Shown here piece by piece: positions 13,823-40,764 of a DNA stretch of 64,000 nucleotides. Each line of letters starts with the position of its first letter. Position 1 is the stretch's first letter. Origin of the DNA: Tubiluchus corallicola (Eukaryota; Animalia; Priapulida); NCBI GenBank assembly GCA_030141605.1, contig JAQGDQ010000626.1:40059-104058 (forward strand), in the 5' to 3' direction. The position numbers were made by a program, and so were the translations under genes. The notes below the pieces were generated by a model, which did not search any database, had not been told where the DNA came from, and worked only from the letters and a program-made list of their open reading frames with translations.

Positions 13823-14518
13823 TTAGAAAAATATAACAAAGAAATTTGCAAAAAACTGCCTATAAAGCATAAATTTAAAGTATACTATCTCTGAGTAAAA
13901 ATTTTGGTTGGCCATCGTTCACTTGAAAATCATGACATAACTGGAAGAGTTCGTGACTTTCCGTAAGCGCCCTGCTTAAACTAATCCAAACTACTTCAGT
14001 TTACTTAGTGTTCACTCAAAAATATTACAAAATTAGCTATCCATTTTGTTTTGTAAAATCTTATTATACTTGATACGTTTCTTCAAGACGAATGACGTCA
14101 TTGGAAAAAGAATGGGCGTTGAAAATGGGAGCGCCCAAGCGCGAAGTGATCATGACTTTAAAGTGATTTCACTAATTACACGAGCCACTTATTGCAATTT
14201 TATTACTAAATCCTTCCAACAGTTTTCGTGAACACTGAAATAAGTCTAACCTCCTAGAAGTGTTGACTTTTCCTTTAACAAACAATTTAAGGAATGAGAA
14301 AAACTCAAGAGAACGATGGTATTTACAAGATAAACAGATGCATTTTTTCACAAACACTTTTAATGATGGTGGCAACAATTCGTATCACAAACAAACACAA
14401 ATATTTAACAATAAACACAAACTAAATGATAGATACATTGACAATTACTAGTATCACATTATTGCTCTTATTATAAACAAAAAACGTCATTTTACCACCT
14501 TATATATACAAACAAAAT

Positions 14519-16174
14519 CAGTAATGCCAGATACCCAAGGCAAACACTCAACTTAATAAGAAGCAGGCAGATGGGGAGGCAGTCCAGTTTCAGTAATGTC
14601 AGACACCCAAGGCAAACACTCAACTTAATAAGAAGCAGGCAGATGGGGAGGCAGTCCAGTTTCAATAATGTCACACACCCAAGGCAAACACTCAACTTAA
14701 TAAGAAGCAGGCAGATGGGGAGGCATTCCAGTTTCAGTAATGTCAGATACCCAAGGCAAACACTCAACTTAATAAGAAGCAGGCAGATGGGGAGGCAGTC
14801 CAGTTTCAGTAATGTCAGATACGCAAGGCAAACACTCAACTTAATAAGAAGCAGGCAGATGGGGAGGCAGTCCAGTTTCAGTAATGTCAGATACCCAAGG
14901 CAAACACTCAACTTAATAAGAAGCAGGCAGATGGGGAGGCAGTCCAGTTTCAGTAATGTCAGATACCCAAGGCAAACACTCAACTTAATAAGAAGCAGGC
15001 AGATGGGGAGGCAGTCCAGTTTCAGTAATGTCACACACCCAAGGCAAACACTCAACTTAATAAGAAGCAGACAGATGGGGAGGCTGTCCAGTTTCAGTAA
15101 TGTCAGACACCCAAGGCAAACACTCAACTTAATAAGAAGCAGACAGATGGGGAGGCAGTCCAGTTTCAGTAATGTCAGATACCCAAGGCAAACACTCAAC
15201 TTAATAAGAAGAAGGCAGATGGGGAGGCAGTCCAGTTTCAGTAATGTCACACACCCAAGGCAAACACTCAACTTAATAAGAAGCAGGCAGATGGGGAGGC
15301 AGTCCAGTTTCAGTAATGTCACACACCAAGGCAAACACTCAACTTAATAAGAAACAGGCAGATGGGGAGGCAGTCAGTTTCAGTAATGTCACACACGCAA
15401 GGCAAACACTCAACTTAATAAGAAACAGGCAGATGGGGAGGCAGTCCAGTTTCAGTAATGTCACACACGCAAGGCAAACACTCAACTTAATAAGAAACAG
15501 GCAGATGGGGAGGCAGTCCAGTTTCAGTAATGTCACACACGCAAGGCAAACACTCAACTTAATAAGAAGCAGGCAGATGGGGAGGCAGTCCAGTTTCAGT
15601 AATGTCACACACGCAAGGCAAACACTCAACTTGATAAGAAACAGGCAGATGGGGGGAGGCAGTCCAGTTTCAGTAATGTCACACACGCAAGGCAAACACT
15701 CAACTTGATAAGAAACAGGCAGATGGGGAGGCAGTCCAGTTTCAGTAATGTCACACACACAAGGCAAACACTCAACTTAATAAGAAACAGGCAGATGGGG
15801 AGGCAGTCCAGTTTCAGTAATGTCACACACGCAAGGCAAACACTCAACTTAATAAGAAACAGGCAGATGGGGTAGCAGTCCAGTTTCAGTAATGTCACAC
15901 ACGCAAGGCAAACACTCAACTTAATAAGAAACAGGCAGATGGGGTAGCAGTCCAGTTTCAGTAATGTCAGACACCCAAGGCAAACACTCAACTTAATAAG
16001 AAACAGGCAGATGGGGTAGCAGTCCAGTTTCAGTAATGTCACACACGCAAGGCAAACACTCAACTTAATAAGAAACAGGCAGATGGGGTAGCAGTCCAGT
16101 TTCAGTAATGTCACACACCCAAGGCAAACACTCAACTTGATAAGAAACAGGCAGATGGGGAGGCAGTCCAGTTT
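14519..16174. repeat. 72-bp tandem array, ~23 copies
   Basis: Unit CAGTAATGTCAGATACCCAAGGCAAACACTCAACTTAATAAGAAGCAGGCAGATGGGGAGGCAGTCCAGTTT. It produces the 24-aa-repeat ORFs on both strands. Confidence 0.95.
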
Positions 16175-17412: not shown

Positions 17413-17637
17413 TCACAAAGCTCCATACTGCGAAAGCCTCTGGTAGTCGCCTTTCGCTGATGATGACTTCCTCGCCCATACAGCAAAGCCGAACGAGATG
17501 AGGATGAAGATGACGAAAAGTATGCAGAGTATGACAAAAACAGCCGTGCTGACGGACGCAATAGGCTCAGCATCCGGAAATGAAGTTGTGGCATTAATCA
17601 TGAATCCGAGACTCCATCCCAGCTCCGCGTTGTTAAT
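17413..17637 (-). CDS. ENTPD: NTPDase exon 11 (ACR5, C-terminal TM, cytoplasmic tail)
   Basis: Acceptor TTTCAG. INNAELGWSLGFMINAT (ACR5), TM TAVFVILCILFVIFILISFGFAVWA, tail ending DYQRLSQYGAL*. Confidence 0.9.
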   Translation of the reverse strand: MNNAELGWSLGFMINATTSFPDAEPIASVSTAVFVILCILFVIFILISFGFAVWARKSSSAKGDYQRLSQYGAL

Positions 17638-17938
17638 CTGAAATACGACATTATGACTAAAACTCGCAGTTTCTGATAAATGTTGATTTCTAGAATGAAT
17701 TCTTTTAAAATGCAAAGCAGAATGCCATTAATGAGTCTACATACTTTACTTTCAACATGTGTGAACCTGTCATTCTGTCTGAATCACACCTGTCTTTATT
17801 TACTGTCTTATGAACCTTTTGCTCTCTTGTTATATTTACAACAAGAGATAAGTTTCGTTATCAACTTTGTCAAAAGAAAAAGTGATAGATATTTTGTGTT
17901 TCACTTGGAAAGAAAGCTGTTTTGTCAGACAACAACTA

Positions 17939-18631
17939 CCGTATTTTCCCGTGTATAAGAGACCCTTTTTTGCTCAGAATTTTCACTTTAAAAATGGGGC
18001 GTCTCTTATACATGGGAGTAAGTCTTTTCAATAAGATGCATAAATTGTGACACTAATGATTTTAAAGAAATAAGTGCTCTACAACTGTTTTTTTTCGAAT
18101 AATTATAGTTTCCTTTCAATAAATCTTCTCCATGGCTAAATTCTAATGTTAAAATTAATGTACCGGGTAAGTTATTATTTTTTTTAAATGTCTCTTTGGT
18201 ATTGGAGAGAAATCGATTGTTCTGCAGCCAATCAACGCCTCTGCATAAGCTCTCTGCATGCCCGTCGACGTCATTGATACGTCGGCAGAGGTCAACGAGA
18301 TGAGTCAGCCTAAGCAAGGCGTGTCGCTTTCGACTATGAAGCGGTTGTAAGCAATACAAGCATCGTGACACAGGCATTATCTCCTCATTTTCCATGGACG
18401 GCACAGAGGACAATGCCATTTTTGAGCAGAGTGACTCCTCTAATGATGAACTGGCTGGAATTGCTGAAGGTCTGACTCCAGTTGATATTTTTGATGAGAG
18501 TGATGAGGAATTTAATGATTTCTATGATGAATAAAGTTATTCATTACCAAAAAACTTTTTTCCAGAATTTTTGCCTAAAAATTGAAGGGGTCTCTTATAC
18601 ACAAGGGTCTCTTATACATGGGAAAATACGG
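17939..18631. mobile_element. Tc1/mariner-pogo-type MITE in the last NTPDase intron
   Basis: TA TSD. TIR CCGTATTTTCCCGTGTATAAGAGACCC / GGGTCTCTTATACATGGGAAAATACGG. Confidence 0.85.
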
Positions 18632-18684
18632 TATGTTCTACAAAGAAAAGGTAATATGACAGACCTTATTAGTAGAATACTTAC

Positions 18685-18825
18685 AGATTGGATGAACTTA
18701 AGGGTTTCCCACGTTGAATCATTAAATCCGTAGCCTTGAGATAACACAAAATCTATATAAACGGCATCAAAACAATATAATGGCAGGAAGCTTTGCTGTC
18801 CAGGTGGCACGGGTATTTGTGAAAC
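18685..18825 (-). CDS. ENTPD: NTPDase exon 10
   Basis: CAG acceptor, GTAAGT donor, 141 nt, phase 0/0. LYCFDAVYIDFVLSQGYGF matches the CD39-family YCF...GY.F motif. Confidence 0.9.
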
Positions 18826-19148
18826 CTGAAACAAATTGAGACGTCAGAGAGCCTAATGTTCACAGATGATATAAAAATTACAGTTGTTCATAAAGTTTAA
18901 GGCGTTCATAAGAACAAATCACTGTTTATTGAGTGAAATCTACATCTAACCATTGTCTGCGTGAATGGTTGCTTGTATGCATGGCGGACAATGTGTCCAC
19001 TTGAATTCTTGGCAGCTTGAATGATGAGTGATCGCTTGCATATTTTAATGCTGAATAGCTACTTGTCTGCATAACTGCTGGGCTGTTTGAATGATTGTTT
19101 GGGCAACTGAATGAAACTGAGTGCCTTTAATGGTGAAATACCTTGCCT

Positions 19149-19551
19149 TGGCTACTCGACTTGTCTGGTTACTCAACTTGTCTGGCTACTCGACTTGTCT
19201 GGTTACTCAACTTGGCTGGCTACTCGACTTGTCTGGTTACTCAACTTGTCTGGCTACTCGACTTGTCTGGTTACTCAACTTTTCTGGCTACTCGACTTGT
19301 CTGGTTGCTCAACTTGTCTGGCTACTCAACTTGTTTGGTTACTCGACTTGTCTGGTTACTCAACTTGTTTGGGTACTCAACTTGTCTGGTTACTCGACTT
19401 GTTTGGGTACTCAACTTGTCTGGCTACTCAACTTGTCTGGTTACTCGACTTGTCTGGTTACTCAACTTGTTTGGGTACTCAACTTGTCTGGCTACTCAAT
19501 TTGTCTGGTTACTTGACTTGCCTGACTACTCAACCTGTTTGGCTACTCGAC
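19149..19551. repeat. 17-bp minisatellite, ~23 copies, with partly alternating variants
   Basis: Unit CTACTCGACTTGTCTGG / TTACTCAACTTGTCTGG. Confidence 0.95.
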
Positions 19552-20162
19552 ATGACTAATTTACTCTCCGTCCATGTGGTCGTCCTTCTACTATATCTTA
19601 CTAAGTGTTTCAGAATTAATCTTTCAGTGCTCAATGCATTCCTGCCCCTGCATTTATGCCTGTTAGAGAACCACTTACAATTATGGTTTAAAACACTCTC
19701 TCTTCTTGGCAAATGTCCAGTACTTCCACTCAATTGGTTTATGGCATAATTAGCATGATTCATCGCTGACAGGGTAAATTTTTTAGCTATGTTGGATAGT
19801 CCTACCGAAGACAGCACAGCACGGGTTGCAGTAAAGCATAAAAATTTGTAAAAATATTGATGCTAAAGAGACAAACTAGAAGTCTATAAGGATCTAGTAT
19901 CAGATGAATGCAGAAAGAGGTTATGCACAAGACTAAATCAAGTCTGTGCTGCACATCAAAGCAAAACAATAATATGTAACCTCAATGATAAAAAATTTGC
20001 AAAGCTCAAAGCACAAGAAAACATTTCATAAATAAATCTTTAAAAAATAGTCTTGAAATTTTATATCACTTACATGTTCACTTTTTGCACACAAAGCTTG
20101 TGTTAGCGGTAAAGCAGTAATGCTGTATAAAACTTGTAAAATAAAACTTCCACGATTCCACA

Positions 20163-20430
20163 ATAATAATAATAATAATAATAATAATAATCTTTATTTA
20201 AAGTCGGCTTTTGGGTCAACAATTAACATTAGCTCAAAGAGCTATTATCGCCGACTGTAAATAACAACCTACAACTACATAACAGAGACTATTATTACCC
20301 CACTTTTACCCTAAATACCACGCGTCAGGCAGGGCAAAGCAGGTACCATTTTTAACGTCTTTGGTTCGAACTGCTGGTTCGAACTCACGACCTCCCAGAC
20401 GGAAAGCAGACGCATTACAACTAGACAAAA
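20163..20430 (-). mobile_element. tRNA-derived SINE inserted in an older dispersed repeat (~20025-20660; related copy ~52825-53160)
   Basis: The minus strand reads GTCTAGTTGTAATGCG...GGTCGTGAGTTCGAACC (box A/B-like), then CCAAAGACGTTAAAAATGGTACC, ending AATAAAGA(TTA)n. Confidence 0.6.
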
Positions 20431-20737
20431 CCATCTGGTTTGAGGGGAAGTTGTTTGAAATAAGTTTAGATGGCACTGCGTAAAGATTGAAAAAATAATC
20501 AAAGCACGAGCAGCAAACTCGTCGCAAACTAAAAAAAAGTTTAAATGATTTTACATTGTCAATATAATATTAATAATGTGTTTTTTTTTGTGAGCGAGAG
20601 GTGCACGCTGGGATAGCAATGGCAGGGCTGTTTTGCCGGGTGGAGCAAATATTATAAATTATTAAAAATAAATGCAAAGTAATATAACTTTGTGTAGGAA
20701 GTTTTTTGTGACATGGTTTAAAATACCCTTTTTGAAG

Positions 20738-20912
20738 TCAATCAATCAATCAATCAAGCTGGCAATCAATCAATCAATCAATCAATCAATAATCAATCAA
20801 TTAATCAGTCAATCGATAATCAAACAATCAATGAATGAATGAATCAATCAATCAATCAATCAATTTTCCAATCAATAATCAATCAATCAAACAATAATCG
20901 ATCAATCAATCA
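20738..20912. repeat. (ATCA)n microsatellite, possibly the tail of a minus-strand LINE 3' UTR
   Basis: Degenerate ATCA tetramer run. Confidence 0.85.
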
Positions 20913-21481
20913 TTACAATTATTTATCTCAATGGTGACACTGCATTACAGCACATGCGATTATAATACAATATATACACAGAGACGGGGTGGTGAAAAAC
21001 CAAATGGTTGCCGAGTCGAGCCACGCCTAACTTAAATAAATCAACAATAAATTGTAGTGGCAGAAACGCAAGGTCGTGAAATTAAGTAAATTTAATTGAT
21101 ATTCATCGTGAAAAACTTCAGCTCAAATTAAATACAAATTGAAAAAAGGGCAAAGTTATCAATGAAAATATAACACGTGTAATTGAATATACAATCGTTA
21201 TTTAAATCATTACTCATGCTATACTATAATATACTATAATAGCTTGCAGGTGTAAGACTGGAATCATAATGATAACAAGAAATATAATAAGGCATAAAAA
21301 AGCAACTTAACAATAAAGCAAAATATAGCATTATCATAGCCTGTTTTAAAGAGCAAGTCATACAAAACCGTAAACAATTTAGAAATAAAAGCAGCTATAA
21401 TGCTATGTCACAATTATTTATGCTGAATCGTGAATTTTAGTCATTCATGATTCATGATCGTAAATACTAAAAGCGGCTTAC

Positions 21482-21607
21482 CTCGGTCCACGTTTTTCTG
21501 CAATACGATGCGGTTGCATTTAAGAAATCCTCCCGGGGAACTACGCCAGAGCCCTCTTTTGAAGTAAGATTTAAAAAAGCCATGACGTAATAGTAACTTG
21601 CAAAAGC
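21482..21607 (-). CDS. ENTPD: NTPDase exon 9
   Basis: CAG acceptor, GTAAGC donor, 126 nt. AFASYYYVMAFLNLTSK...YCRKTWTE aligns to CD39 AFSAFYFVMKFLNLTS...FCAQPWEE. Not in the ORF track. Confidence 0.9.
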
Positions 21608-21676
21608 CTGTAAAGAAAATGATAAAATCGGTGAAATGGAAAAGAAAGTTACAGCTAATATGTAAACTTACGTGGT

Positions 21677-22043
21677 TGTTGTGGAGATCGCTGGCGTCTA
21701 TTAGAATTAAATAGAACATTGTAGAATGTTCCGTTAGAATAATCGTCCTACCGTGTAGAATGTTCTAGAAAGAAACTTCTAGAAGCTTCTCGGGTGCCCT
21801 ATATAAGGCGAAGCAGGCCGATGAGACACACACAGATTCACATGAACGCCACTTACACATTCTCCTGAATACCTGTATTTTCAGATACACTTAAACATTT
21901 TCCAGATTTTCACATTTACTGCAAACATTTCGTGTTCCTTCATACTTTTGTGTTGTAGAAGTCTCGCTTAATAAACTAGTTTAATTTGACGAAGTGTTTT
22001 CTGGTTTTCTCTACGAGCCTTGCGAAAGAAACAAAACACAACA
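21677..22043 (+). mobile_element. Solo LTR (367 bp)
   Basis: Termini TGTTGTG...CACAACA. 5-bp TSD GTGGT at 21672-21676 and 22044-22048. TATATAA at 21800 and AATAAA at 21970. Confidence 0.85.
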
Positions 22044-22533
22044 GTGGTCACAATTACAAAGTGCTCAAACATTATTCTAGATTAGATGTATACAAATATT
22101 TGTTCGCAAATAGAGTAGTCCCTACGTGGAATGATGTTAATTATGACATGGTTAATGCATCAAACATTGTCTGTTTTAACACTAGACTAACAAGCTGCAA
22201 CTTTTTAAACTGGTGCCATTTTAATCGTTTTATGTAAGTTATTGTTCCTTAACTGTTTGTGGTGTCTCTGCGTTTTAAGTTTCTTTTTGGGTTTCTAAGG
22301 TTATTACTAGAGGATCTCGAAGATTTGAGCAGATGTTTAACATTTAGAACGGTATATTATTTGCAGTTTTACTTTTGTGATTAAAGGAACAATTCTTAAA
22401 TTAGTATAAATTGAAACATTTATATTTGTACTTACGCTCTATGTGGTATGGCAGTATTATATGTAATTATTTTGTTGTCATTATTTCAGCCTGATCATTG
22501 CTGCAATATGATAAATAAACCACTTTGATTGAT
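22044..22533 (+). mobile_element. CR1-like LINE 3' fragment interrupted by the solo LTR
   Basis: Removing the LTR restores LRGHNYKVLKHYSRLDVYKYLFANRVVPTWND (CR1 RGH..K...F..RVV..WN motif). The 3' UTR ends AATAAA...TTGATTGATT. Confidence 0.7.
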
Positions 22534-22904
22534 TCAGCAAAAACTTCCATAGTTATTTACGATCAGGCGTTTTAAATGCTAAACATCTGCTTGACACTGC
22601 ATGGAGTTCTTATTGTTAAATGTGTTAAGAATTGCCTCCTGGCAAACAGCAATATGGGTGCTCTTCATATGCTGAAATCTTTGGGATCCTCTATTTACTC
22701 GTTTAATAATAAAATACTTCTTGTTCAGGTATTTGTTTAATAATTGTAAATTACTTTATATTGTATTATATGGCTAGCATGAGTGCTATATGCCTGCTGC
22801 CATTTTCTTTTATAAAAAAGTATTTCATAAATAAATAATAATAAAATAATTATTTCTTATATAAATAATATATAATATTATTAAATATAATAAAATTAAT
22901 ATAT

Positions 22905-23010
22905 TATAATATAATATAATATAATATAATATAATATAATATAATATAATATAATAAAATATAATATAATATAATATAATATAATATAATATAATATAAT
23001 ATAATAAAAT
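22905..23010. repeat. (ATAAT)n microsatellite in an AT-only tract
   Basis: Direct pentamer run. Confidence 0.9.
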
Positions 23011-23982
23011 ATATATTTTTATAATATTTTTATAATAATAATATATTTTAAAATAAAAATATTTTTAATAATATTATTAAAAAATAAGTAGTTCTTAAAT
23101 AAATAAATAAATAATACTAAAATAATAGAATGATTCCACCATAAGTGTTCAAAGTGCTAATTAAGCATTAAGAAGGGCAGATTATTCTATTCAGCAGTCA
23201 CCTACAGCTAATAATTAATTAAACCCAAAAAGCTCACTGATTAGAATTGCATTTTGCTTTTTAAGAATTACTAGATTTCAGATGACATCATGCGACTGAA
23301 AATAGCGCAATTACAAGTTTCATTGTTGTGCCTGATCAACATGCTGGCCATTGAGAAATTTCACTTTTTACACGACATTCGCTAATTTTGTTACAATGAG
23401 TATCTGCAGGTAAAAACAGCCAATTAAGAGGGTTCTTAAGGTGTCAAGGTCGTTTTGGGGTTTTGTGCCTTTTCAGTAAATTTATTAAGTGTTTTATTCT
23501 ATTTTGTTCAGTAAATGAAGCATTTTTCATTGGGTTACCAGCAGGTTTTTCTCAAATAGTTAAATTATTTGCCTATTTAAACAAAAATAGCCAACATCTT
23601 CAAATAACTAATGAAATATCCAACCGGAATATTTGATTCATGCAAACGCAGGACATAAATTTTTTGCGCGCTAATGACATTTGTAAAAAAAACTGTGTAG
23701 AATTTCATTCACATGTTGGCTGGAGATACGTTGCCATGATGTTTGTGACACGCAGCTGCTATGTTCATTGTCCTGCTGTAACTTCAAACATCACATTACT
23801 GGAATGGACATTGCTAAAGTTGGCATTACTATGGTGAATGAGCCATTATCTGCCTGCCATCTAGAGGCGAGTTAAAAAATCTATGCAATTGCACAACTTG
23901 CAGTCGTATTCAGCATTAAGCGAGGAGTTACAGTATATAAAAACAACAAAAATAAAGGAAAACCATGAGACAGTAATTGTAC

Positions 23983-24120
23983 CAGAAAATCTCCATGCAA
24001 CGCAGGTTGAGCAGACATTGGCTGGAAGGGACAGTCAGTACAATTCACTACCAAGAGTATTTGCAGTTTTAGCTGGCAGGCCATGTAGTCACTGGTTCCT
24101 TGAAACTCATACGTTTTGTT
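23983..24120 (-). CDS. ENTPD: NTPDase exon 8
   Basis: TAG acceptor, GTACAA donor, 138 nt, phase 0/0. NKTYEFQGTSDYMACQ...NCTDCPF...QPALHGDFL. Confidence 0.85.
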
Positions 24121-24140
24121 CTAGAATAAACAATGTCAAA

Positions 24141-24343
24141 TACAATGCTGCAGTACAATGCTGCAGTACAATGCTACAATACAATGCTGCAATACAATGC
24201 TGCAATACAATGCTGCAGTACAATGCTGCAGTACAATGCTGCAGTACAATGCTGCAATACAATGCTGCAGTACAATGCTGCAGTACAATGCTGCAGTACA
24301 ATGCTGCAATACAATGCTGCAGTACAATGCTGCAGTACAATGC
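24141..24343. repeat. 13-bp minisatellite, ~15 copies
   Basis: Unit TACAATGCTGCAG, ending ~20 bp from the exon 8 acceptor. Confidence 0.95.
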
Positions 24344-24934
24344 AAAATATCAATTTGTGATGCATCAACAAGAAAACAGACTAGAATCTCATTGCAGGCA
24401 TGTTGACTATCTTTGTGTGAACAATTTGCAATCAAAGCTTCAGATCTTTCTCTGCATTTCACTCAAACTTTGGTTACGTATGTTTCCAGCAATACAATAT
24501 AAATGTTGACAGGCATATCAAAATTCTGCCAAATTTTTTGAAGATACGAACGTTTTAAACAATAAAAATACATTCCATCTTTAACATCCACTATTGCACA
24601 TGAGGCATCTGCGGCGGATTCAGCCTTTAGAAAAAGGGTGGGCCCAACGAAAATGCAGCTAGGGGGTCTGGGGAACCCCGACTACCAATGCATTTTACTG
24701 CATTTTAAACCATTTTTCTTACTATTTCCTCAAGGAAATCCAATAGTTTAAAACTCATTAAGTCACCTCAAACTTTTGACTCTTAATTACACACCAATAT
24801 ACACACTAGTATAACATATAATTGCGCACAGCGACATCTTTACCAAAAACTTCAATTATTACTTAAAGGGCACAGACATTTTTACACTGAAATCATTAAT
24901 GCAGAATTAATAAAATAAAAATGTAATCAGTTAC

Positions 24935-25090
24935 CTCAGCATGTTGTGGGAGACTTAACAATGAACCCCAAGCAGTTACTGCTTCTTCGTCACCAACACA
25001 CGGTTTCCTGAACAGTTCGGTACCGGTTGAGTACGTTGAGTTGCCTGTCGGTGCGCAAGGATTCTCCACAATTGTAGTAAAATTTGATGC
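24935..25090 (-). CDS. ENTPD: NTPDase exon 7
   Basis: CAG acceptor, GTAACT donor, 156 nt. ENPCAPTG...LFRKPCV carries the conserved cysteines. Confidence 0.85.
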
Positions 25091-25159
25091 CTGTGCAAAA
25101 CAATGGGTACATAAAATGAAAAAACTTGCGCGAATGGAAGTTGAACATGCACAACTTAA

Positions 25160-26049
25160 CCCTTTCACTACAGAAGGTGTGAAGCATTTTTGTTTGTTAT
25201 ATAGCGTTTTACAGTTACAAGTGGCGACATCTGGCTTCAATAATTGCATCCTAGTCAATTTCCGGTCATTCAAGTTTCAATGTGTTCAAGTGATGACGTG
25301 TTTCTGTGTAACTCACGATTTAATGTCAACGATGTATGTAAATTTTATTTAGTTTATTTGCTGTAAGTCTCTCATTAATTTCACTTAATCGTAATCGATC
25401 TTTTGATAAGAAATGAATTAATTTATTAAAGGAATTTATATATCTTGTTTCAGATAAAATGTAATATTTTTGGGTAATGGCGTCTCAGTGTCAGATATGA
25501 AGTAAATGACTAAGGGTCACGAGACGTGAAGATGGTATACAAACAATAAACTGTTATGCTAAGCAAAAATGATGACTTTGTTTGTCACCGTAAAGCCCAA
25601 ACAGAAGGTGGCACACTAACGTCTATGTTTTTCTTGTAAGAGACGGAAGGTGGTAGACTGCCGCCCGAGCTCAGCACTAAGCGCAGTCACCCAGGTCTGT
25701 TTATTTTGCTACTACGGCCATGCATAAACGTTATAGAAAAGCTTAACAGCCGTCGGATTGGGGTTGTTTCGCGACAAGTAATGCTAACCAGCCAATCAGC
25801 ATCTGAAGCCAGGTGCATTCCACAATATTGTACTGTATCGTACGTTCCCAAGCAAAATCACTTGTAGATCATTGATGAAACGTATGTTTAGTTTGACAGT
25901 TCAGCATTCTTATAAAATGATTGCATATTATGGATTAGTATTGTCTTTTGTGAAAACTGTGATTTCTAAATATAAGTACATGCTTATTTATGAGGGTGTG
26001 CAAGTGTGTGTGTGTGTGCGTGTGCGTGTGTGCGTGCGTGCGTGTGTGC

Positions 26050-26098
<49 letters not shown>

Positions 26099-26330
26099 CA
26101 TGTGTGTGTGCATGTGTGTGTGTGCACATGTGTGTGCATGTGTGCTCGTATGTTTGCTCGTATGTGTGTACATGTGTAGAAATAAAACTAATATTTAATA
26201 TTGGCACTCAATAACGAGCAACTATTTGTTTATTTACAAGATTCTGTTCTAGTAACACACCACAAGAAGTTATTGTCACATGCGAGACGTCAATGTGGCC
26301 CAGTTAAAAAGCAACGACATAGTGAAAGGG
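25160..26330. mobile_element. piggyBac-type non-autonomous element containing a (TG)n tract (26004-26176)
   Basis: TTAA at 25156-25159 and 26331-26334. TIR CCCTTTCACTA / TAGTGAAAGGG. Confidence 0.75.
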
Positions 26331-26509
26331 TTAAAAATATTTATCTAGAAGCCAAGAAGGATTTCAGAACACAACTTACAAGCATCAGACGAGTATTTAA
26401 ATGCAACCTCTGTTCTATAACCCTTTGCCATCATCACATTCCACATTGTCCAATCACGAGCAAGCTGCAAAAGTTTGTTAGCATGTCAACCAAAAGTACT
26501 AGCACTTAC

Positions 26510-26725
26510 CACGACTAGCGCCGCCTTGAATCGATTCTCCGCTTCCATCTTGCCGTAACAGAGGTAGCTATGCGTGTACACGGTGTAACTTTCTCCGTAA
26601 AGGAGTAGATCAGCACTATAGTTGGCAGGTATCACAGTACCGGTGCTGGGCTCAAATGTGAGCTGAGTCGATGCCCCACCCATGTCTAATGCACCAACTG
26701 TAGGCTTTCTTGCCACAAGTTTTGG
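26510..26725 (-). CDS. ENTPD: NTPDase exon 6 (ACR4)
   Basis: TVGALDMGGASTQLTF (ACR4) and YTHSYLCYG. CAG acceptor, GTAAGT donor, 216 nt. Confidence 0.95.
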
Positions 26726-26881
26726 CTGCACGAAAAATAAATCAGCAAATGTTTTAAAATGGCATTTACATTAACCTGCAAATTTAATATTGGAGTAGCA
26801 AGTTAGTAAGTAAAGTTAAATTTAAAAAAGAAGTCGTTTAATCGAAAGACAAATTTCAGGCAATTGCCTTAATATGTCAGT

Positions 26882-27377
26882 GCCTGGTTAGTACTTGGAT
26901 GGGTGACCGCCTACGAATACCAAGTGCTGCAGGCTTGCAGGATGCCCACGCTGTATCTCGACACTAGGCAGAGGAGCTGAGCAAGCAGCCAATGGCTAGA
27001 GGGTGGAGGAGGTCAAGTGACCCTACGGCCATGTGTAGAGGAGTAAACCTTCCAAATTAGGAGTGGAGCCCCGAAGACGGACCAGTGCAGCATGCTCACT
27101 GACTCTGGCATCTCCTGCAGCCAACCTGATGCCAAACGTATCGCTCCGCTTTGCTTTGGACTACACCAGGGAGGAAGAGAGGGGGTTCCTGTTGTCTGGG
27201 CAACTCGGGATCTCCATACACCTTGCCCAGGCATGTGCCCTGGAGAGGCCATTCCAGTGGTTCGAGGATCGGACTGCTCAGCCACAGTCGACGCTGCAGC
27301 TCCAACAATGTGATCAATAACTGACTCTCTTGGCGCACACTCCATTGTCTTCCGAGACAGAAGGATGCCAACAACAA
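26882..27377 (+). mobile_element. 5S/RTE SINE copy 2 (5'-truncated)
   Basis: Starts within the 5S head (GCCTGGTTAGTACTTGGATGGGTGACC) and is colinear with copy 1. Ends GATGCCAACAACAA. Confidence 0.9.
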
Positions 27378-27647
27378 TACTTGTTCCAGCTGCTATATTA
27401 TTCCATATTAGTGGCACGACATTTTATTGAAAATTTTCTTAAGTCGATGTTGCAACGTACAAAGTGATAATTAGACTTAGTCCGAGCATTTTCAGAGTTA
27501 AGAGTAAAATATTTTTGAAAAAAGGGAAGGCAGCAATAGTTTATCATGGAATTTATTCATAAATACAGCAGTATGAAAACGGTTAACACACCTAAAGAAA
27601 AAACACTGTTGCTAGTTAACTGTCTAAACAATTCATTGAATACACAC

Positions 27648-27807
27648 CTCATTCAAATCTCCGTTTAAATAGTTTACTGTGACCCATGAAAATGAACCTT
27701 CCTTTTCTCCAGAGATAATGCTGGCATTTTTGTAGTCAAATACAGAGTTCTGCATAGCGGTCCGTACGGCTGACATGATGGCTTTACTTGCTTGTGGATC
27801 AGAGAGG
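27648..27807 (-). CDS. ENTPD: NTPDase exon 5 (ACR3)
   Basis: ASIISGEKEGSFSWVTVNYL (ACR3 with the catalytic Glu). TAG acceptor, GTGTGT donor, 160 nt, phase 2/0. Confidence 0.95.
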
Positions 27808-27964
27808 CTATAAAAAATTTAACTGTTTATGTAACAGAAGATGTAAAGCATCACATAAGAAAAATTTATGCACAGCTCCTTGATGCAACATGAAAAACAT
27901 TATGATGACGCGAATGATAAGTTGAACCAACAAATGTAGTTCAGCAAGATCAAACTCTTATAGG

Positions 27965-28330
27965 ATAAGCCTTTTCACAGTTCCAGCGATTGATGATCGT
28001 GAAAAGGTCAACAGTTAAGTGTACCAGACAACGCCTCGCAGTCCATGCCGTTGTAATTGTAACAGTTTTAACAGCTAGCTAGAACCTTACCTAGTTCATT
28101 TTTCATCGTTCCCAAGCAAAGTCCTGCTAGTAAATCACTCTATGCACAGACTAATGCATAATTAAATAAAATCCACGTAAAACAACTGACGTTACTGATC
28201 TGATGCAGCAGACGGCTTTGCTTTACCCACATGTCACCTAACGGTTATAGTTAAGATGCGTTGCCATGGCACGCTTAACCTTTTCCTACAGCAACTGCGC
28301 GTACGCACAACAAAAAGGCTTATTCGTTGA
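27965..28330 (-). mobile_element. Family Z dispersed repeat
   Basis: Reverse complement of ~58620-58985, e.g. AACAGCTAGCTAGAACCTTACCTAGTTCATTTTT. Confidence 0.65.
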
Positions 28331-28721
28331 CAAAAAGAACATTTTCATGAGCTCAAACTACAGAGTAGCTCATTTAATAATACTTAGATTATCAAGTTGA
28401 TATAATTATTAGTAGATGTTGTACTGCTAATGAATAAAGGTGTTTTTGCAAAATCTTTAAAATTGAATATGAGCGAATTTCGTTTTAAGTAAACTAATAA
28501 AAAATTCTCTAATCCCTAAATTGCAAAAAAAGGGATACCAAGGCAATCCTGCTTTAGAATTGCGGAACCCCGAGAGATGACCAAGTTGAAAAATGAAAAA
28601 CATCACATTTCCAGTCATATCGTATCAGCGGCCAAAACCACTGTACTTTATCGTCAGGTGAAAGAGAAAAGCAAATAGATCAGGTTAAATTAGTAATTCT
28701 CATTTTTGCGGGAATTTTTTA

Positions 28722-29289
28722 TCGTATATATTAATGGCCATTTTTTGGACATTTTTTGCAAAACTTAAACGTCTGAGATCTGAAGAACGGGAACGTGCCG
28801 AGGGGGGTGCTGGCTATGGATAGATAGCCCGTTTAACTGTGGGTGTAGTAGGCGTATTTAGAATTCGCGAGAGGGTCACGGCGTCCCGTAATTTCCCAGA
28901 CCCAACTCCCGATTTTTTCGAAATTTTGACCAAGCAGCCTGCAGAAAAAACGTTCTAGTGGTGCCTGGTGGGACTCTCGGAAGGAGATATATGGCTCTTT
29001 AGAAAGAGAAGAACAGGGCTACACGATGATGTGGGCCATGCTTTAAAACACATCCACCAAAAGGAGTGCCGACGAGTTAATTAGATGTTCTATTTTTAGC
29101 AATTTTCTCTTAGAAAACTGCTGACGCAAAGCCATTGTTCTGACGTCATCCATTATACTCTGCATATAACTTTAATTCAGTAAAAGCTGCTACTGGCTTT
29201 GCGTTATAAATGAGGACTATGTAGCATGTTTGCGTATTTTTGATTATACGTGTATTTATACGCAAAATTTTTTGCAGGGCCTTTGCTAG
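28722..29289 (+). mobile_element. Non-autonomous Helitron
   Basis: A|TCGTATATATT start, CTAG|T end, GCAAAATTTTTTGC hairpin ~10 nt before CTAG, no TSD. Body shared with 45891-46612. Confidence 0.75.
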
Positions 29290-29408
29290 TTTGTATTAAT
29301 AGCACAAAATTATCATGCTAAAAGAATATAAGCATGTAAAAACACAGAAATACAGTAAACAAAAAAAATCAAGTGAGAGAAGTCACGTGTTTTCAAACGT
29401 CTTCCCAC

Positions 29409-29556
29409 CTGAGCAATCTCATTCCTGCCGTAGCACCAAGATAAAGAGGAGTCGTAGCTTGATGATCTTCTGCAATGATTCGTTGAGCGTCGTTCAGTAA
29501 ACCTTCGATTGCCTTTCCGGCGGCATCGGGATTTTTGTCGTAGGTAGAAATTCCAG
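29409..29556 (-). CDS. ENTPD: NTPDase exon 4 (ACR2)
   Basis: GISTY...TPLYLGATAGMRLL (ACR2). CAG acceptor, GTGGGA donor, 148 nt, phase 1/2. Confidence 0.95.
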
Positions 29557-29799
29557 CTGACAAGGCAAAACATAATCAGAACGTTAATCAAATTAGGAAT
29601 TTCCACATACGTACCACATATACACTGTCTTCAAATGTGACGCACCATAATCACTCCACGTATAAAACGAAAGCTAAGACAAAGAGGTAATGAACCACTA
29701 AAGTACAGCAGGCAAAAAAGAAGGGAAAATCGTATATATTAATTTCGCTGGTATATATATATATATATGTAAGAAAGCAGTACATATTCTGTTCTGTTT

Positions 29800-30253
29800 A
29801 TTCTGTTCTAAAAACGCATTAGTAACCTAAACAGCGCAATTATTATAACGCCTTTGCTTCCCGACTGACTACATACTAAATTCAAGCTGTTTGTATCAAG
29901 CGAGATCTATTTGCGGATTTATACAGCTCCAGGCACCCGAGTTTAAACTTTAGGCCACTTTATTTTGTCTGTAACTTGCGGCTATTACAACCAGATTAGT
30001 ACCACCTGAAATTCTACCAAGTCTAGCAAGATATTGATAAGAAAGATAGGTGGTTTCAAACAAACAGAAAGAAATTCATCAGTAGAAATATGAATAAATC
30101 TCGTAAAACATTTAATTTATATGATTAAGCAGCATTGATTTTTTGCTTCTGGGACGTATTTCAATTTTTTTACATTACTTTCCATGAAAATTTTGGTTTC
30201 GCTTAACGACATTTTGCTGGAACACATTAGCGTCGTTAAGCGAGGACTTACTG
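29800..30253 (-). mobile_element. Tigger/pogo-like MITE, partial inverted copy of 32317-33366
   Basis: Ends CGTTAAGCGAGGACTTACTG|TA. Internal ~29800-30010 is the reverse complement of ~32950-33170. Confidence 0.8.
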
Positions 30254-30416
30254 TAGTTTTCTTTTATACGTTTACGTTGTATAAACTATATAAACATTTC
30301 CTACATTTACCAACAAGCAAAAGAGTATTTGGCATAAAGTACTATAGAATTTACCAACACATCACAAACGTACACCTTTTCCACATTCACAAACAAACTT
30401 ATCTAATAATGCATAC

Positions 30417-30534
30417 CATCATGTTGAAAAGACCCGGCCTCCTTGACGATGGCTGTTCCTGCGTTCTTGTGAGGGTCCCATTTGTAAACGAAGAGTTTTG
30501 TATGCGTGGAGCCAGCATCAATTACAATTCCATA
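30417..30534 (-). CDS. ENTPD: NTPDase exon 3 (ACR1)
   Basis: YGIVIDAGSTHTKLFVYKW (ACR1). AAG acceptor after a pyrimidine tract, GTATGC donor, 118 nt, phase 0/1. Confidence 0.95.
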
Positions 30535-32316
30535 CTTAAAAAGAAATAAGGACTTTTGTTCAAGAAAAAAATCCCGGTTTTTCTAGCTGTTTTCAAACAT
30601 TAAAAGACAACATTTAAAATAGTGTCTACATCTAACATTGTAACCTCGCTTATAGCTGATGGAATGTCCTAAACAAAACTTCAAATTCCGCCTTGGCTTG
30701 CTAATGGTCAGTTTATTCTGAGAAAATAAAATAAAAGCATTTTGCAAATTCAGGTGATTATACAAGATTATTATAAAATAGGAACTAAATCAAAATATTA
30801 AATCATTTAGGTATGAATTACACAATTTTTACAAATTACAACAACTGTAAACTAGTAAAATGCTACATGAAATAGAAATTAAACTTCTCTTTTAAGTAAT
30901 CAAAAAAATTAATAATCATCATATTAAACCTACATATATTGGCAGGCTGCGTGAGATTAAGGATATCCATAAAATAAGACCAAAAATCCATAAAATAAAA
31001 TTTAAGGAATTCATAAAATAAGAAATGCATAAAATAAAAAAAATATTTTTTTTGTGATTTTTTGTACAAAGTAACGAGTTGTAAGCATTGGCAACACTGA
31101 AAACGAACGTTAGAAGGAGAGAAAGAGAAAGAAAACAAACCAACAAAAGCGCATTTCCGGATTTGCTATTTTACATTGTTGTTTTCTCATTGTCTTTTTG
31201 TTATCAAGATGGCGAAGTTTCAACCAAAGCATGAGCTGGAGTTCGGTCTGAAACTGGCGAAGTTTCAACCAAAGCATGAGCTGGAGTTCGGTCTGAAACT
31301 AAGTCCTGCGTGTTTAAAAACACGTTTCAAGCACTCCTGTTTTTACTTTTTAATTGATTTCCCCCTGGGCATCTCGTTCCAGATAAAGTCTATTTCTTAT
31401 TTTATTGATATCCATAAAATAAAATTTCAAAAATCTATAAAATAAGCTATTTTATTTATTTTATACATATCCATAATCTTATGCACCCTGTTTATTGGCC
31501 AGCAATGGCATTTAAACTTAAAGGTATCAGAAAACTGTAGAAACAGGTCATAAGCATTTATCAAATCATTGAATTTGGCTAAATTAAGTATAAACAGATA
31601 GCAAACACCAAGACAGCGTAACAGTCTACTGTCCTACTGATATCTGCATAAAACCAGATTCAATCACCTGAGTATATAAGTACATGCTAACAAATTTAAA
31701 GCAAGAAATTCATTCAAGGCCTACAAGGTGGCAGCACATGACAGTATCAGTTTATCCCCAACATCCCTATTATTGCTGTTGCATTACTAGTCGCTGAGAA
31801 ACAGGTGCAATCATCACATTAATGAATCAATGAAATAATCACTCATTGTTCAATAATTTCTTGAATAGTAAGTTAAAATTAATAAATGCAAACGATAATG
31901 ATGTTTAGTATGTTCTCTGTGGGGTCGCAATATGAAACAGGGTCCTGGAAAGGGGTCACCGTCAACAAAATGTTGGGAACTACTGTTCTACCCTATAAAA
32001 TCCCTCCTTGTGTTTTCTACCAGTAAGTAAAAAACGAACAAAGAAAAAACAAAATATTTTACTTATTTTAGAATTTCCTTTTTTCAGTTTTAATAATAGT
32101 TGGTTTTGCAAGAATGTTTCGTTTCGGTATCGGTTTTTAGTGTTTGATAAATTTCGGTTTCGGTAACACCCCTGGTTGCTATAAAATTCAATAGAATTGT
32201 TATTACAACTGGTATCTAGCTATACAAGAATCAAGGCGATGGTTGCAAGCTAATCTTGTACAGATCTAATACTTAGTTTAGCCTTTCTTTGAAAAACGAT
32301 GCGCAACATTAAAATA

Positions 32317-33366
32317 CAGTAAGTCCTCGCTTAATGATGCTAGCGCGTTCCAGCAAAATGCAACATTAAGGGAAACATCGTTAAATGAAGCGAAGACATC
32401 CATAGAAATTAATGTAAAAGAACTGAGATACGTTCCAGAGGCAAAAATCAATATTGATGAAATCATATAAATTAAACGTTTTATGAGTTTTACTCGTGTT
32501 TCTACTGACTAATTTCTTTCTGCTTGCTTGAAACCACCTATGTATCTTACTAATCTAGCTAGTGGTTTCTCTTTAGTTAACGTTTAAGTCTAGACGACAG
32601 TTAAACAATAAACACTGCAGCAAAGTCGAAGTCAAGCCTTGGAAATTTTATCTAGAAACTTAGTCTGGTTGCTAGAACAACAGGTTGCAGGTGAAATTCC
32701 TTCGCATAAAGTTTGCTGCCAGGTCTAGCTTGACACAAACGGCTAAGCATTTAGTGGTCAGTTGGCAAGTAAAAATGCATGTACTTATATAATAATAGCA
32801 GTGTTTACGTTATCAGTGCATTTTTAGAACAAAATAATAAAATATGCACTGTTTTACAGCATCAAATTAAGTGAAAAAGTTGTTAGTCATATAAAAATTT
32901 GCATTGAGTAAATAAAAAAAGTAGAAAAACTGTCATTAAACCGAAACGTGCATGCCAATTTCAGGTAATACTAATCTGGTTGTTATAGCAACAAGTTACA
33001 GACAAAATTCCTTGGCATAAAGTTTAAACTCGGGTGCCTGGAGCCGTATAAATCCGCAAATAGATCTCGCTTGATACAAACAGCTAGAATTTAATACATA
33101 GTCAGTCGGGAAGCAAAGGCGTTATAATAATTGCACTGTTTAGATTACTAATGTGTTTTTAGAACAGAGTAATGCAGCATGTGCCATTTTAATGCTTCAA
33201 GTTAGCTAAAAAAATTGCAGATAAAATGAAATATGGCTGTGAGCAAAGTAAAAAAATCATCGTTAAAATGAAGCAGGCGTCGTTAAGTGCGAAAAATGTG
33301 TCTAACGTTCGGCGTCGTTAAAACGAAACATCACTAAACTGGGAGTCGTTAAGCGAGGACTTACTG
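32317..33366 (+). mobile_element. Tigger/pogo-like MITE, complete
   Basis: TA|CAGTAAGTCCTCGCTTAA...TTAAGCGAGGACTTACTG|TA. Confidence 0.85.
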
Positions 33367-33389
33367 TATTAACGCAAAAGTAAATTTAC

Positions 33390-33520
33390 ATCACTCTCAT
33401 GTCTGAGACTGTTGGCATAAATGACCGAGATTGCTACTAAACCTCCAGCACCAATCAGAAACGAGACTCCTGTTAGAATCCACCAATTGCTGCAGCCAAA
33501 CGTTTTATCATCCTGCATCA
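33390..33520 (-). CDS. ENTPD: NTPDase exon 2 (N-terminal TM helix)
   Basis: TTTTTTGTAG acceptor, GTAAAT donor, 131 nt, phase 1/0. (V)MQDDKTFGCSN-WWILTGVSFLIGAGGLVAISVIYA-NSLRHESD joins YGIVIDAGS in frame. Confidence 0.85.
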
Positions 33521-34189
33521 CTACAAAAAAAGCAGAAAATCAATAATATAAAGATTTACAAGCATTTTTGTAATTCTAGTAAGATCTTTGATACGTTTAT
33601 TGCAGCGTATAACTCATGTGAACATTTGCACCCAAGTTTGATAAAACATAACTACTCTACTGTCATTCTTACATCACACTTGGACAATAAACAGCTTTTA
33701 TATATATATATAATAATCTTTATTTGCCATTAAAATACATTGATAATCACTGATAAAAACTTTACAGAGATGATCAATCCGTGTTAGTTAATAAAAACTT
33801 ACACTGCTAAAGACAAATGCGTCAGTGCAATCTAAACTACTGTGCAGTAATGGAAAGTAACGACGAATAAAATCAAACATATTTACAACTATGCACAAAA
33901 AAATGAAAAAGCTTTTGCATTTTTTACGTATAAACAGCCACACAAAATGGATGAAAATTCGATTGTTTTTCGAAATTGTTTTCATTCTAAACATGTTATT
34001 TGTTTTTACAGACATTTGTAAAAAACGTCTCTACTGTTTAGTGAAGAAGAAGCAAATGACCAAGTGAAAGCCGAGATTGGTGGTCAGTGACTGCCAGGCA
34101 TATGTTCTATAATTGCACTTGGTGGTTCAGTGTCTCATATTAATCCTGTAAGACTCATCATAATCAGACCCATTAAGTAGGCTGTTCTT

Positions 34190-34554
34190 AACACCAGTTC
34201 TCGTCTGATGACCGAAGTTAAGCAACGTAGAGCCTGGTTGCTACTTGGATGGGTGACCGCCTCGGAATACAAGGTCCTGTAGGCTTGCAGGATGCCCACA
34301 CTGTATCTCGACACTAGGCGGAGGAGCTGCACAATCAGCCAACAGCTAGAGGGCGGAGGAGGTCAAGTGACCCAACGGGCATGTATAGAAAAGTAAACCC
34401 TCCAAATCAGGAGTGGAGCCCCGAAGGTGTGCGCCCTCGAAACGTTCAAGGATCGCACTGCTCAGCCACAGTCGACGCTGCAGCTCCATCAATGTGATCA
34501 ATAACTGATTCTCTTGGCGCACACTCCATTGTCTTCCGAGACAGAAGGATGCCA
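34190..34554 (+). mobile_element. 5S/RTE SINE copy 3 (internal deletion)
   Basis: 5S head AACACCAGTTCTCGTCTGATGACCGAAGTTAAGC. Lacks the segment between CCCCGAAGG and TGTGCGCCC. Same 3' tail. Imperfect TSD AAGTAG(G/A)CTGT. Confidence 0.9.
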
Positions 34555-35250
34555 GCCAAAGTAGACTGTACCAGTGAGTGTTAATTCCAGCTAGCTGTGC
34601 TAAACAGTAAGTTTTTTAGACAATATGGCTTGTTTAAAATGAAGTATCACAACATATAATTGTAAAAACATACGACAAATTAGTACAAGCACTCCTATAA
34701 TAAAATAATTGCACATACAGTACCAGTGGCGGCTCGTGGAACTGCAGCACCCCCTATTTTCACTCAATATTCTCGATAATATTCCATGTAATGAGTCTTT
34801 TTTTAGTTCTTTCTTAATACTTGTATGGAACCAGAGCACATGAGGGTAGTACTGTTTGCTTCAAAGCCAAGTACAGTGCACTCCAGCAACATGGTGTTTG
34901 GCTGTTATGTGCATGCACATATTTGAGCCTAGGTAGAGAAAGTACTGTCGCTCACACAGTTTGCTGTCAGTTGTCACGTGCTTACCGTGAATGGATCACG
35001 ACTGAACTGCGACAATTAGGCTATTAGTGATTAAAAAATGTTTTTTCATTTAGGATCTTATCAAGTTTATGTATAAACTTTCATGTGTTTGTTTATTTAA
35101 AATTACAATTGCAAATTACAACATTAAAATTACATATGTTTGTTTCGTTTTACACAATATTAAAACAATGGCTAAAAATTTTTGAAGCAGCACCCCCGCT
35201 AATTTTAGCTACAAGCCACGACTGTACAGTACTATTAAAAACTAACATAC

Positions 35251-35485
35251 CTCGTTTGCCAAAATAAACAACATCATCATCACTGAGGTTGTAGCTGCCG
35301 ACAGTACGGTCACACTCGAGTATTTGGTAAGCTGCATTTCTGATGACGTAACTTGATTTAACGATGCAGCCCTTTTGTATGCAAAATTCAGCAATCAGAC
35401 TGTTTACTTCAGTGCTAGGGTCCACATCAATTTCTATGCTACCAGAAGCTCCACCACTCAGTAAGCTAATCACTTGTAGATGCAT
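35251..35485 (-). CDS. Putative NTPDase coding exon 1: ubiquitin-like (beta-grasp) domain
   Basis: 78 codons + 1 nt: MHLQVISLL...SIEIDVDPSTEVNSLIAEF...ILECDRTVGSYNLSDDDVVYFGKR, which follows the ubiquitin pattern. Donor G|GTATGT is phase 1, matching the exon 2 acceptor. In-frame stop 10 codons upstream of the ATG. Confidence 0.7.
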
Positions 35486-40503: not shown

Positions 40504-40764
40504 TTTCTGGGCAATCCTTGTGGTGAGCACGGAGCGTACGTTTTCTTCAAAAGCCTTCAATACGACGATGCCGTGACAGGCAAGCAAAAAACTTTGACCC
40601 TTGGACAATTTTTCTTCCTGAAGATATCTAATGATTTTCCATTTTGCATCGGAGAAATACAGCTACTTTGGGAGGATCGAAACGCCAAGGAACGCCTGTC
40701 TAGTTCCAGGCTGTACTTCCTGCCGGAGGACACGCCAAATGGAAGACAGAGCAGGGATGGCCAG
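40504..40764 (+). CDS. ARID5B: ARID5B-like gene, exon 2 (N-terminal BAH-like domain)
   Basis: FLGNPCGEHGAYVFFKS...LTLGQFFFLK...CIGEIQLLWEDR...LSSSRLYFLPEDTPNGR closely matches the human ARID5B N-terminus (WVGSPCGLHGPYIFYKA...LSSSKLYFLPEDTPQGR). TTTAG acceptor, GTGAGC donor, 261 nt. Confidence 0.9.

Follow-up and report, generated by a model that had tools for sequence, protein, structure and literature searches.

A CD39-type NTPDase gene with a probable N-terminal ubiquitin-like domain in the priapulid Tubiluchus corallicola, and related fusions in other bilaterians

Introduction

The ecto-NTPDases terminate purinergic signalling. On the cytosolic side they are held to carry only short tails. 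NTPDase1, NTPDase2 and NTPDase3 have short cytosolic N-tails, and NTPDase4 is located in the lysosome/Golgi. Ubiquitin-like domains (Ubls) that are integral parts of larger proteins are known from other systems; one of the proteins that carry them, TUG, tethers GLUT4 vesicles. Here we describe a gene from the priapulid Tubiluchus corallicola in which an exon encoding a Ubl is very probably joined to a CD39-type NTPDase. The gene lies in a stretch of 64,000 nucleotides (GenBank assembly GCA_030141605.1, contig JAQGDQ010000626.1, positions 40,059 to 104,058 of the forward strand), which is referred to below as the window; all coordinates are those of the window.

The architecture is real, old and apparently undescribed for a well-known enzyme. 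Since the Ubl is kept in molluscs, a brachiopod, myriapods and an echinoderm, it points to intracellular control of ATP/ADP clearance in many animals, beyond the view offered by work on vertebrates, and one may ask what was lost from CD39 in vertebrates. The fusion is open to direct test in tractable animals such as oyster, clam and starfish. Both folds are known, the proteins are already present in databases without a telling name, and the function is inferred.

Results

Gene structure

The window is eukaryotic, repeat-rich DNA with a GC content of 36%. The gene is located on the minus strand, from 35485 to 17413, and consists of 11 exons separated by ten introns, all of the GT-AG type. The joined coding frame is open over 1794 nt (597 amino acids and a stop), intron 1 being in phase 1. 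It encodes, in this order, the Ubl, a transmembrane segment (TM1), the NTPDase domain with apyrase conserved regions (ACRs) 1–5, and a second transmembrane segment (TM2). A preliminary description of this locus, made from the sequence letters, had proposed a complete NTPDase with two transmembrane segments and consistent splice phases; the introns, the five ACRs and the two hydrophobic segments bear this out. The phase-1 donor of exon 1 and the 597-residue product proposed there are likewise reproduced by the open frame. The exons are as follows.

35251..35485, minus strand: exon 1, a predicted beta-grasp Ubl of 78 residues without diglycine, ending in a phase-1 GT donor (frame, predicted fold, profile search, donor rank)
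33390..33520, minus strand: exon 2, a short linker, juxtamembrane Cys88 in a C-x-x-W-W type motif (possible palmitoylation site), and TM1 (hydropathy, motif in relatives)
30417..30534, minus strand: exon 3, ACR1 (DAGSTH, residue 128); first conserved ectodomain Cys absent (alignment, motif)
29409..29556, minus strand: exon 4, ACR2 (GATAGMR, residue 202); partner Cys of the first pair absent (alignment, motif)
27648..27807, minus strand: exon 5, ACR3 including the conserved Glu (GEKEG...W, residue 244) (alignment, motif)
26510..26725, minus strand: exon 6, ACR4 (DMGGASTQ, residue 278) (Pfam GDA1_CD39, motif)
24935..25090, minus strand: exon 7, ectodomain C-lobe (frame, alignment)
23983..24120, minus strand: exon 8, ectodomain C-lobe (frame, alignment)
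21482..21607, minus strand: exon 9, ectodomain C-lobe (frame, alignment)
18685..18825, minus strand: exon 10, ectodomain C-lobe (frame, alignment)
17413..17637, minus strand: exon 11, ACR5 (WSLG, residue 531), TM2, a 20-residue cytosolic tail with YQRL and then terminal YGAL, and the stop (frame, motifs)

Judged from the sequence, it is highly probable that exon 1 is joined to the CD39-type enzyme as a Ubl fusion in this gene. An in-frame stop lies 10 codons 5' of the exon 1 ATG. A weight matrix derived from the remaining nine introns was applied to the GT sites in 35485-33390 and put the exon 1 donor first of 147. By the same nine-intron matrix, which is crude, the exon 2 acceptor ranked seventh of 121 AG sites; its placement is backed, despite this middling rank, by homology with relatives. 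AG sites close to the exon 1 ATG score weakly as acceptors of a candidate intron in the 5' untranslated region. From one sequencing run, presumed to be RNA, 75 contigs aligned with the window, almost all at less than 95% identity; among the pieces and variants listed, every one fell outside the exons and no joint coincided with an exon border, which says nothing for or against expression. Neither an extra coding exon upstream of 35485 nor a second NTPDase was found in the window by tblastn with eight relatives, and NCBIfam profiles gave nothing further above the cut-off.

The ubiquitin-like domain

By its predicted fold, exon 1 is a beta-grasp ubiquitin-like domain. In Pfam no family reaches its cut-off for this domain, the sub-threshold matches being Rad60-SLD (E 0.0014) and ubiquitin (E 0.015). 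The fold predicted from the single sequence was poor, with a predicted local distance difference test score (pLDDT) of 48, whereas AlphaFold2 supplied with an alignment of 23 relatives gave a pLDDT of 95.5 and a predicted template modelling score of 0.83, a confidence reached only with the alignment. The predicted order of elements, strand-strand-helix-strand-short helix-strand, is that of a beta-grasp. In Foldseek, ubiquitins match the model at TM-scores of 0.81–0.86. A wide structural search (VIA) placed Rad60 SLD2 first (Z 13.5, root-mean-square deviation 1.1, 71 residues aligned), followed by ubiquitin, TINCR, ISG15, talin/kindlin F0, Dsk2 and Rad23 with Z of 10.8–12.5 (ubiquitin about 12). 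TUG-UBL1-type clusters are present among the Atlas structure matches, and a separate Atlas model of the Lingula relative has the same fold at residues 1–80 (TM-score 0.85). The preliminary description had read the 78 residues as ubiquitin-like from their pattern and had named a beta-grasp prediction as the check; run here with AlphaFold2 and Foldseek, that check found the fold, and the structural matches agree.

As a control for chance, a profile was built from the Ubl domains of 22 relatives, with the window row left out, and compared with the 1071 stop-free stretches of the window. The exon 1 frame scored E 2.5e-22 and the runner-up 0.36. Sub-threshold Pfam matches were obtained for family members to ubiquitin (9 of 13), UN_NPL4 (9 of 13, best E 2e-6) and TUG-UBL1 (8 of 13, best E 3e-5); the window domain matches neither of the last two. 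Precomputed Pfam assignments place UN_NPL4 on one fused relative and TUG-UBL1 on another. Because Rad60 SLD2, ubiquitin, talin/kindlin F0 and YukD score about alike, the fold names no pathway.

There is no C-terminal diglycine in the window Ubl, and an RGG motif before ACR1 occurs in none of 17 fused relatives. For this reason the Ubl is unlikely to be processed or conjugated and appears to be an integral domain, as the preliminary description had held.

In ubiquitin numbering the hydrophobic patch is formed by L8, I44 and V70. We mapped these positions onto 23 rows of the Ubl alignment via the ubiquitin-like repeat of one match (P0136). The V70 position is occupied by G, T or S in 19 of the 23 rows, and lysine is not conserved at the equivalents of K48 and K63. 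Column 48 is aliphatic in all 23 rows, and column 49 is mostly R or K (15 of 23). The equivalent of I44 is I48, an aliphatic residue, according to hhalign, or R49 in an alternative register. We favour the latter on the model, with I48 as a core residue like L43 and R49 (R/K/L/T/S/Y among the rows) at the I44 position, because column 48 is always aliphatic and because of the strand limits in the model. In sequence terms the I44/V70 face thus looks degenerate. The preliminary description had suggested that extracellular ATP/ADP hydrolysis could be coupled to ubiquitin-receptor, proteasome or trafficking machinery. A link to ubiquitin receptors or the proteasome by way of a face like that of ubiquitin is not supported, given the residues at the V70 position and, in the likelier register, at the I44 position, although the other register keeps an aliphatic residue there. 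L9 is kept in all 22 filled rows and Y74 in 18 of 23; both are candidate residues of a different binding face, their exposure being predicted from the model. The best-kept columns are mostly of the core type (I31, C35, L56).

The fusion in other animals

With exon 6 as the query, 229 proteins passed; the counts given here rest on the best 120 of these, together with the Ubl searches. The Ubl is present in 13 of the best 120, and at least 17 full-length proteins with the order Ubl-TM-NTPDase-TM were found. They include proteins of a starfish (Acanthaster planci XP_022097702.1), oysters (Crassostrea virginica XP_022286416.2, Ostrea edulis XP_056006617.1), clams (Mya arenaria XP_052771373.1, and Mercenaria, Mactra and Ruditapes), a brachiopod (Lingula anatina XP_013419262.1) and a millipede (Chamberlinius hualienensis GAB6025477.1). 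In the centipede Strigamia (T1IIW9, P0130) the Ubl stands on the first of three NTPDase repeats; repeats 2 and 3 lack it. This model is 1697 residues long with three tandem NTPDase units and probably represents merged tandem paralogues. The record names of the fused relatives are just ENTPD-like or uncharacterised. Window exon 1 is 25–43% identical, pairwise, to the Ubls of five of them. No Ubl was seen among the best 120 of the 229 matches in proteins with vertebrate names (mostly ENTPD8) or cnidarian names.

Eight full-length fused members of 600–643 residues are encoded on contigs of 1966–3717 nt, which are likely cDNA because they are too short for a gene of such span. One of these contigs (L001), read as DNA, carries an intron-free fused open reading frame (ORF) of 600 residues with an in-frame stop 14 codons upstream. 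Three genomic ORFs (P0146, P0147, P0149) match the relative P0003 across the Ubl and then diverge as G-K, which is the read-through expected from a phase-1 GT donor at that place. Further Ubl-only ORFs fit the G-K pattern, judged from the protein letters (P0124, P0127, P0134, P0135, P0142).

A word-based protein search with the 78-residue exon confirmed none of 108 candidates, and a full HMMER search gave 16 matches, 9 of them family members. In metagenome DNA, none of 287 stretches was confirmed with the Ubl query, and a query with the relative P0017 returned its own contig alone (1 of 61). Another cytosolic domain on this enzyme family was observed in P0120, a 540-residue NTPDase with a precomputed N-terminal PF00610, which we take to be the DEP domain.

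Family membership and ectodomain

The five ACRs, at residues 128, 202, 244, 278 and 531, align with those of the relatives. Exon 6 alone matches Pfam PF01150 (GDA1_CD39) with 60.9 bits (cut-off 24.9), full-length relatives scoring 193–312. P0017, which is 42% identical to the window protein, matches NTPDase2 and NTPDase1 structures at E 1e-83 to 2e-81 and NTPDase4 at E 1e-26. By its sequence the window protein is a member of the GDA1/CD39 family and, with P0017 as a proxy, nearest to the clade of surface enzymes. It would work as these enzymes do, yet we do not class it as an NTPDase1/2/3/8 type, because its sequence has neither the short N-tail nor the ten-cysteine pattern: eight of the ten ectodomain cysteines of the vertebrate rows are present. 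The ectodomain contains 10 N-glycosylation sequons.

The two missing cysteines form the first ectodomain pair (exons 3-4, 30534-29409). Both are replaced, a paired loss; most relatives keep the pair, and one Mya model (P0011) lacks one of the two.

Membrane topology and C-terminal tail

Hydropathy reveals two hydrophobic segments, for which the 19-residue windows start at about 91–99 and 545–563, with maxima of 2.1 for TM1 and 3.3 for TM2. About 90 residues including the folded domain precede TM1, and in the aligned rows the Ubl ends about 10–20 residues from it. As there is no signal peptide and the topology of CD39 is assumed, the Ubl and the C-tail would be cytosolic. The Cys-Trp juxtamembrane motif is present in 14 of 17 full-length fused relatives; CD39 is palmitoylated at Cys13, according to PMC12586806.

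The last 20 residues contain tandem YxxPhi motifs, YQRL and then the terminal YGAL, about 11 and 17 residues from TM2. Among the matches listed, 16 of 17 Ubl-bearing proteins end in YG-x-Phi, as does 1 of 70 full-length proteins that lack the Ubl (the chiton), counts that are not phylogenetically independent since the sequences are related and the 70 are mostly of the vertebrate ENTPD8 type. An upstream YxxPhi lies within seven residues in 11 of the 16. YQRL is the signal of TGN38 that was crystallised with AP-2 mu2, and signals of the YXXPhi type mediate internalisation, as stated in PMC2133128. For Lamp1, shifting the motif five residues farther from the membrane trapped the protein in a recycling pathway (PMC2199866). 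By comparison with Lamp1, motifs placed this far from TM2 would suit recycling better than lysosomal residence. The conserved tyrosine motifs put a steady cell-surface location in doubt, and their sequence suggests cycling.

Age of the fusion

The fusion would have arisen by the protostome-deuterostome split, since it is present in Mollusca, Brachiopoda, Arthropoda and Echinodermata; on these sequences an early bilaterian age is probable. Trees of the catalytic part were built for 34 rows and for 16 rows, the latter without the three longest branches and near-duplicates. The window protein stands next to P0017, without starred support, and the deep order is unsettled. Three groupings were put to approximately unbiased tests and none was rejected: the Ubl rows with the chiton (p 0.17), the Ubl rows by themselves (p 0.058), and starfish with vertebrates (p 0.10). 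Vertebrate loss and hidden paralogy are therefore not separable; loss of the Ubl in vertebrates is the simplest reading of the sequences.

Other features of the window

Positions 14518-16174 hold a long array of tandem repeats, about 72 nt per unit and 92–95% identical. Copies of one repeat that starts with a 5S rRNA match are located at 11511-12058, 26879-27372 and 34169-34427, two of them inside introns of the NTPDase gene. The Rfam scores are 67 bits at 11511 and 41 bits at 34169, and the repeat extends up to about 500 nt with 88–92% identity; it is possibly a 5S-derived short interspersed element. A BAH-domain exon (40504-40764, plus strand; Pfam E 0.02, BAHCC1 BAH E 0.004) lies about 5 kb from the NTPDase gene, to which it is oriented head to head; it may be ARID5-like. 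A stop-free Ser/Lys-rich frame of 531 residues at 7682-9274 (plus strand) has no Pfam match and is likely a large exon of an adjoining gene.

Discussion

We propose, with middling confidence, that the Ubl is a permanent cytosolic docking module which, together with the tyrosine tail, controls sorting of the enzyme between the surface and endosomal/vesicular pools. Exon 1 would be spliced to the TM1 exon, giving a product like the continuous ORF of the relative on contig L001. TM1 would insert in the type II manner, so that both the Ubl and the C-tail face the cytosol. The glycosylated ACR1-5 domain would then lie outside the cell or in a lumen, where it may hydrolyse ATP/ADP, as the five ACRs suggest. 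The Ubl, given the missing diglycine, would be neither cleaved nor conjugated. YQRL and YG-x-Phi could bind AP mu subunits, leading to internalisation, and the Ubl could recruit a partner by a non-canonical face (candidates L9, R49, Y74); this partner would tether, release or recycle the enzyme and so set the timing and place of extracellular ATP clearance. A precedent for docking at this end of the protein is provided by CD39, the N-tail of which is a regulatory docking site for RanBPM (PMC7859358). A predicted complex of the Ubl with the last 30 residues, made without alignments, scored 0.00 and speaks neither way.

Several observations weigh against this proposal or against the fusion itself. 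The 35251>33520 junction is likely, as judged by splice phase, the strength of the donor and the relatives; it was seen in no transcript of this species. The chiton protein XP_064600092.1 (P0012) has no Ubl yet keeps the Cys-Trp motif and the tail motifs, a second Mya model in GenBank (P0010) has half a Ubl, and P0141 has the Ubl without the terminal YG-x-Phi; the Ubl-less or half-Ubl models, including Strigamia repeats 2-3, could reflect gaps in annotation, isoforms or genuine losses. The association of tail and Ubl is weakened by the kinship of the sequences counted, and a YXXPhi match by itself is not predictive of sorting, as PMC2133128 warns. In eight close rows the median identity of the Ubl (62%) is near that of two ectodomain parts (65% and 58%), whereas in all 17 rows it falls to 32% (ectodomain 50% and 37%), the Ubl being the more similar in just 25 of 136 pairs. 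The Ubl has few invariant surface residues, and its net charge ranges from -7 to +3. The sparse invariant surface, variable charge and lower identity disfavour one tightly conserved partner. A shared fold by itself shows no function.

The Ubl might instead regulate catalysis, a partner or Ubl self-association pulling TM1 and shifting activity or the ATP/ADP preference. The transmembrane domains of CD39 are needed for activity and specificity, and RanBPM on the N-tail lowers activity (PMC7859358); the short distance from the Ubl to TM1 agrees with such coupling. We consider it unlikely, since it leaves the conserved tyrosine tail unexplained. In another reading the Ubl imitates ubiquitin as a fixed part of the protein, and UBA/UIM receptors, ESCRT, p97 cofactors or the proteasome would take it as a constitutive tag for degradation or the multivesicular body. 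This would accord with ubiquitin and the Rad23/Dsk2 UBLs among the top fold matches, with the sub-threshold family matches to ubiquitin, UN_NPL4 and TUG-UBL1, and with the aliphatic residue that hhalign puts at the I44 position. The small or polar residues at the V70 position and the poor conservation of lysine at the K48 and K63 positions argue the other way, as does the better fit of column 48 to core L43, by which the I44 position would hold R/K/L/T/S/Y; Rad60 SLD2, talin/kindlin F0 and YukD, moreover, match about equally well. This explanation is quite improbable.

We give a little less weight still to a purely passive role, in which the Ubl, as a fast-folding N-terminal domain, aids folding or topology by fixing the N-in orientation of the weakly hydrophobic TM1, or raises expression, and has no specific partner. 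The lower hydropathy of TM1 and the core-type character of the best-kept columns would suit it, and cnidarian and vertebrate matches manage without a Ubl; L9 and Y74, kept on the predicted exposed face, would not be expected. There is finally a small probability, the smallest we assign, that in this species exon 1 stays apart from the enzyme, always or at times, the main transcript starting from another exon and using the in-frame ATG at 33518 to encode an ordinary short-tailed NTPDase. That ATG, the chiton model, Strigamia repeats 2-3 and the partial Mya P0010 speak for it; the intact exon 1, the matching phase, the top-ranked donor and the identity to the five fused Ubls speak against it. 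A minor Ubl-less isoform beside the fusion is possible.

A wider scenario can be sketched, which we advance tentatively and regard as rather doubtful. The ancestral bilaterian CD39 would have been Ubl-fused and tyrosine-tailed, with a sorting tag encoded in its own gene, stored intracellularly and exposed on demand via a non-canonical Ubl receptor, and the vertebrate NTPDase1/2/3/8 would descend from it through loss of both the Ubl exon and the tail.

Comparison with known systems

The preliminary description knew of no integral Ubl fusion to these enzymes. This stands for the literature, in which no description was found in the full texts searched (a scope without most subscription papers or supplements; domain tables in supplements of genome papers may list it); as to the architecture itself, it is old and widespread among invertebrates, and it stands in RefSeq and UniProt models that leave it unnamed. 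The accessible parts of PMC12586806, PMC7887318, PMC7943599 and bioRxiv 10.1101/2021.07.30.453759 do not mention the fusion; Aplysia ENTPDases are named without architecture in the portion of PMC7943599 available.

Vertebrate NTPDase1/CD39, 2, 3 and 8 resemble the window protein in the five ACRs, the two terminal transmembrane segments, the many N-glycosylation sequons and the juxtamembrane Cys before TM1. They differ in having a short N-tail, where the window protein has a folded domain of 78 residues, and the latter adds a C-tail with tandem tyrosine motifs. The cnidarian NTPDases (Nematostella XP_032240692.2, Stylophora and close relatives) have the same catalytic and two-TM layout and are about 40% identical, but possess neither the Ubl nor the tyrosine tail; in the five rows of the cnidarian group whose N-terminus is intact, an acidic dileucine-type motif is found at that end.

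The integral type II Ubls (Rad60 SLD2, Rad23/Dsk2, TUG-UBL1, NPL4-N, talin/kindlin F0) share with the window domain the beta-grasp without diglycine, at Z of 10.8–13.5 for those with solved structures. Unlike them, the window Ubl sits on an ectoenzyme, a fusion not found in the literature searched. NTPDase4 (PDB 6wg5) belongs to the same GDA1/CD39 family and is far more distant in sequence; its intracellular location would resemble the sorting proposed here for the window enzyme.

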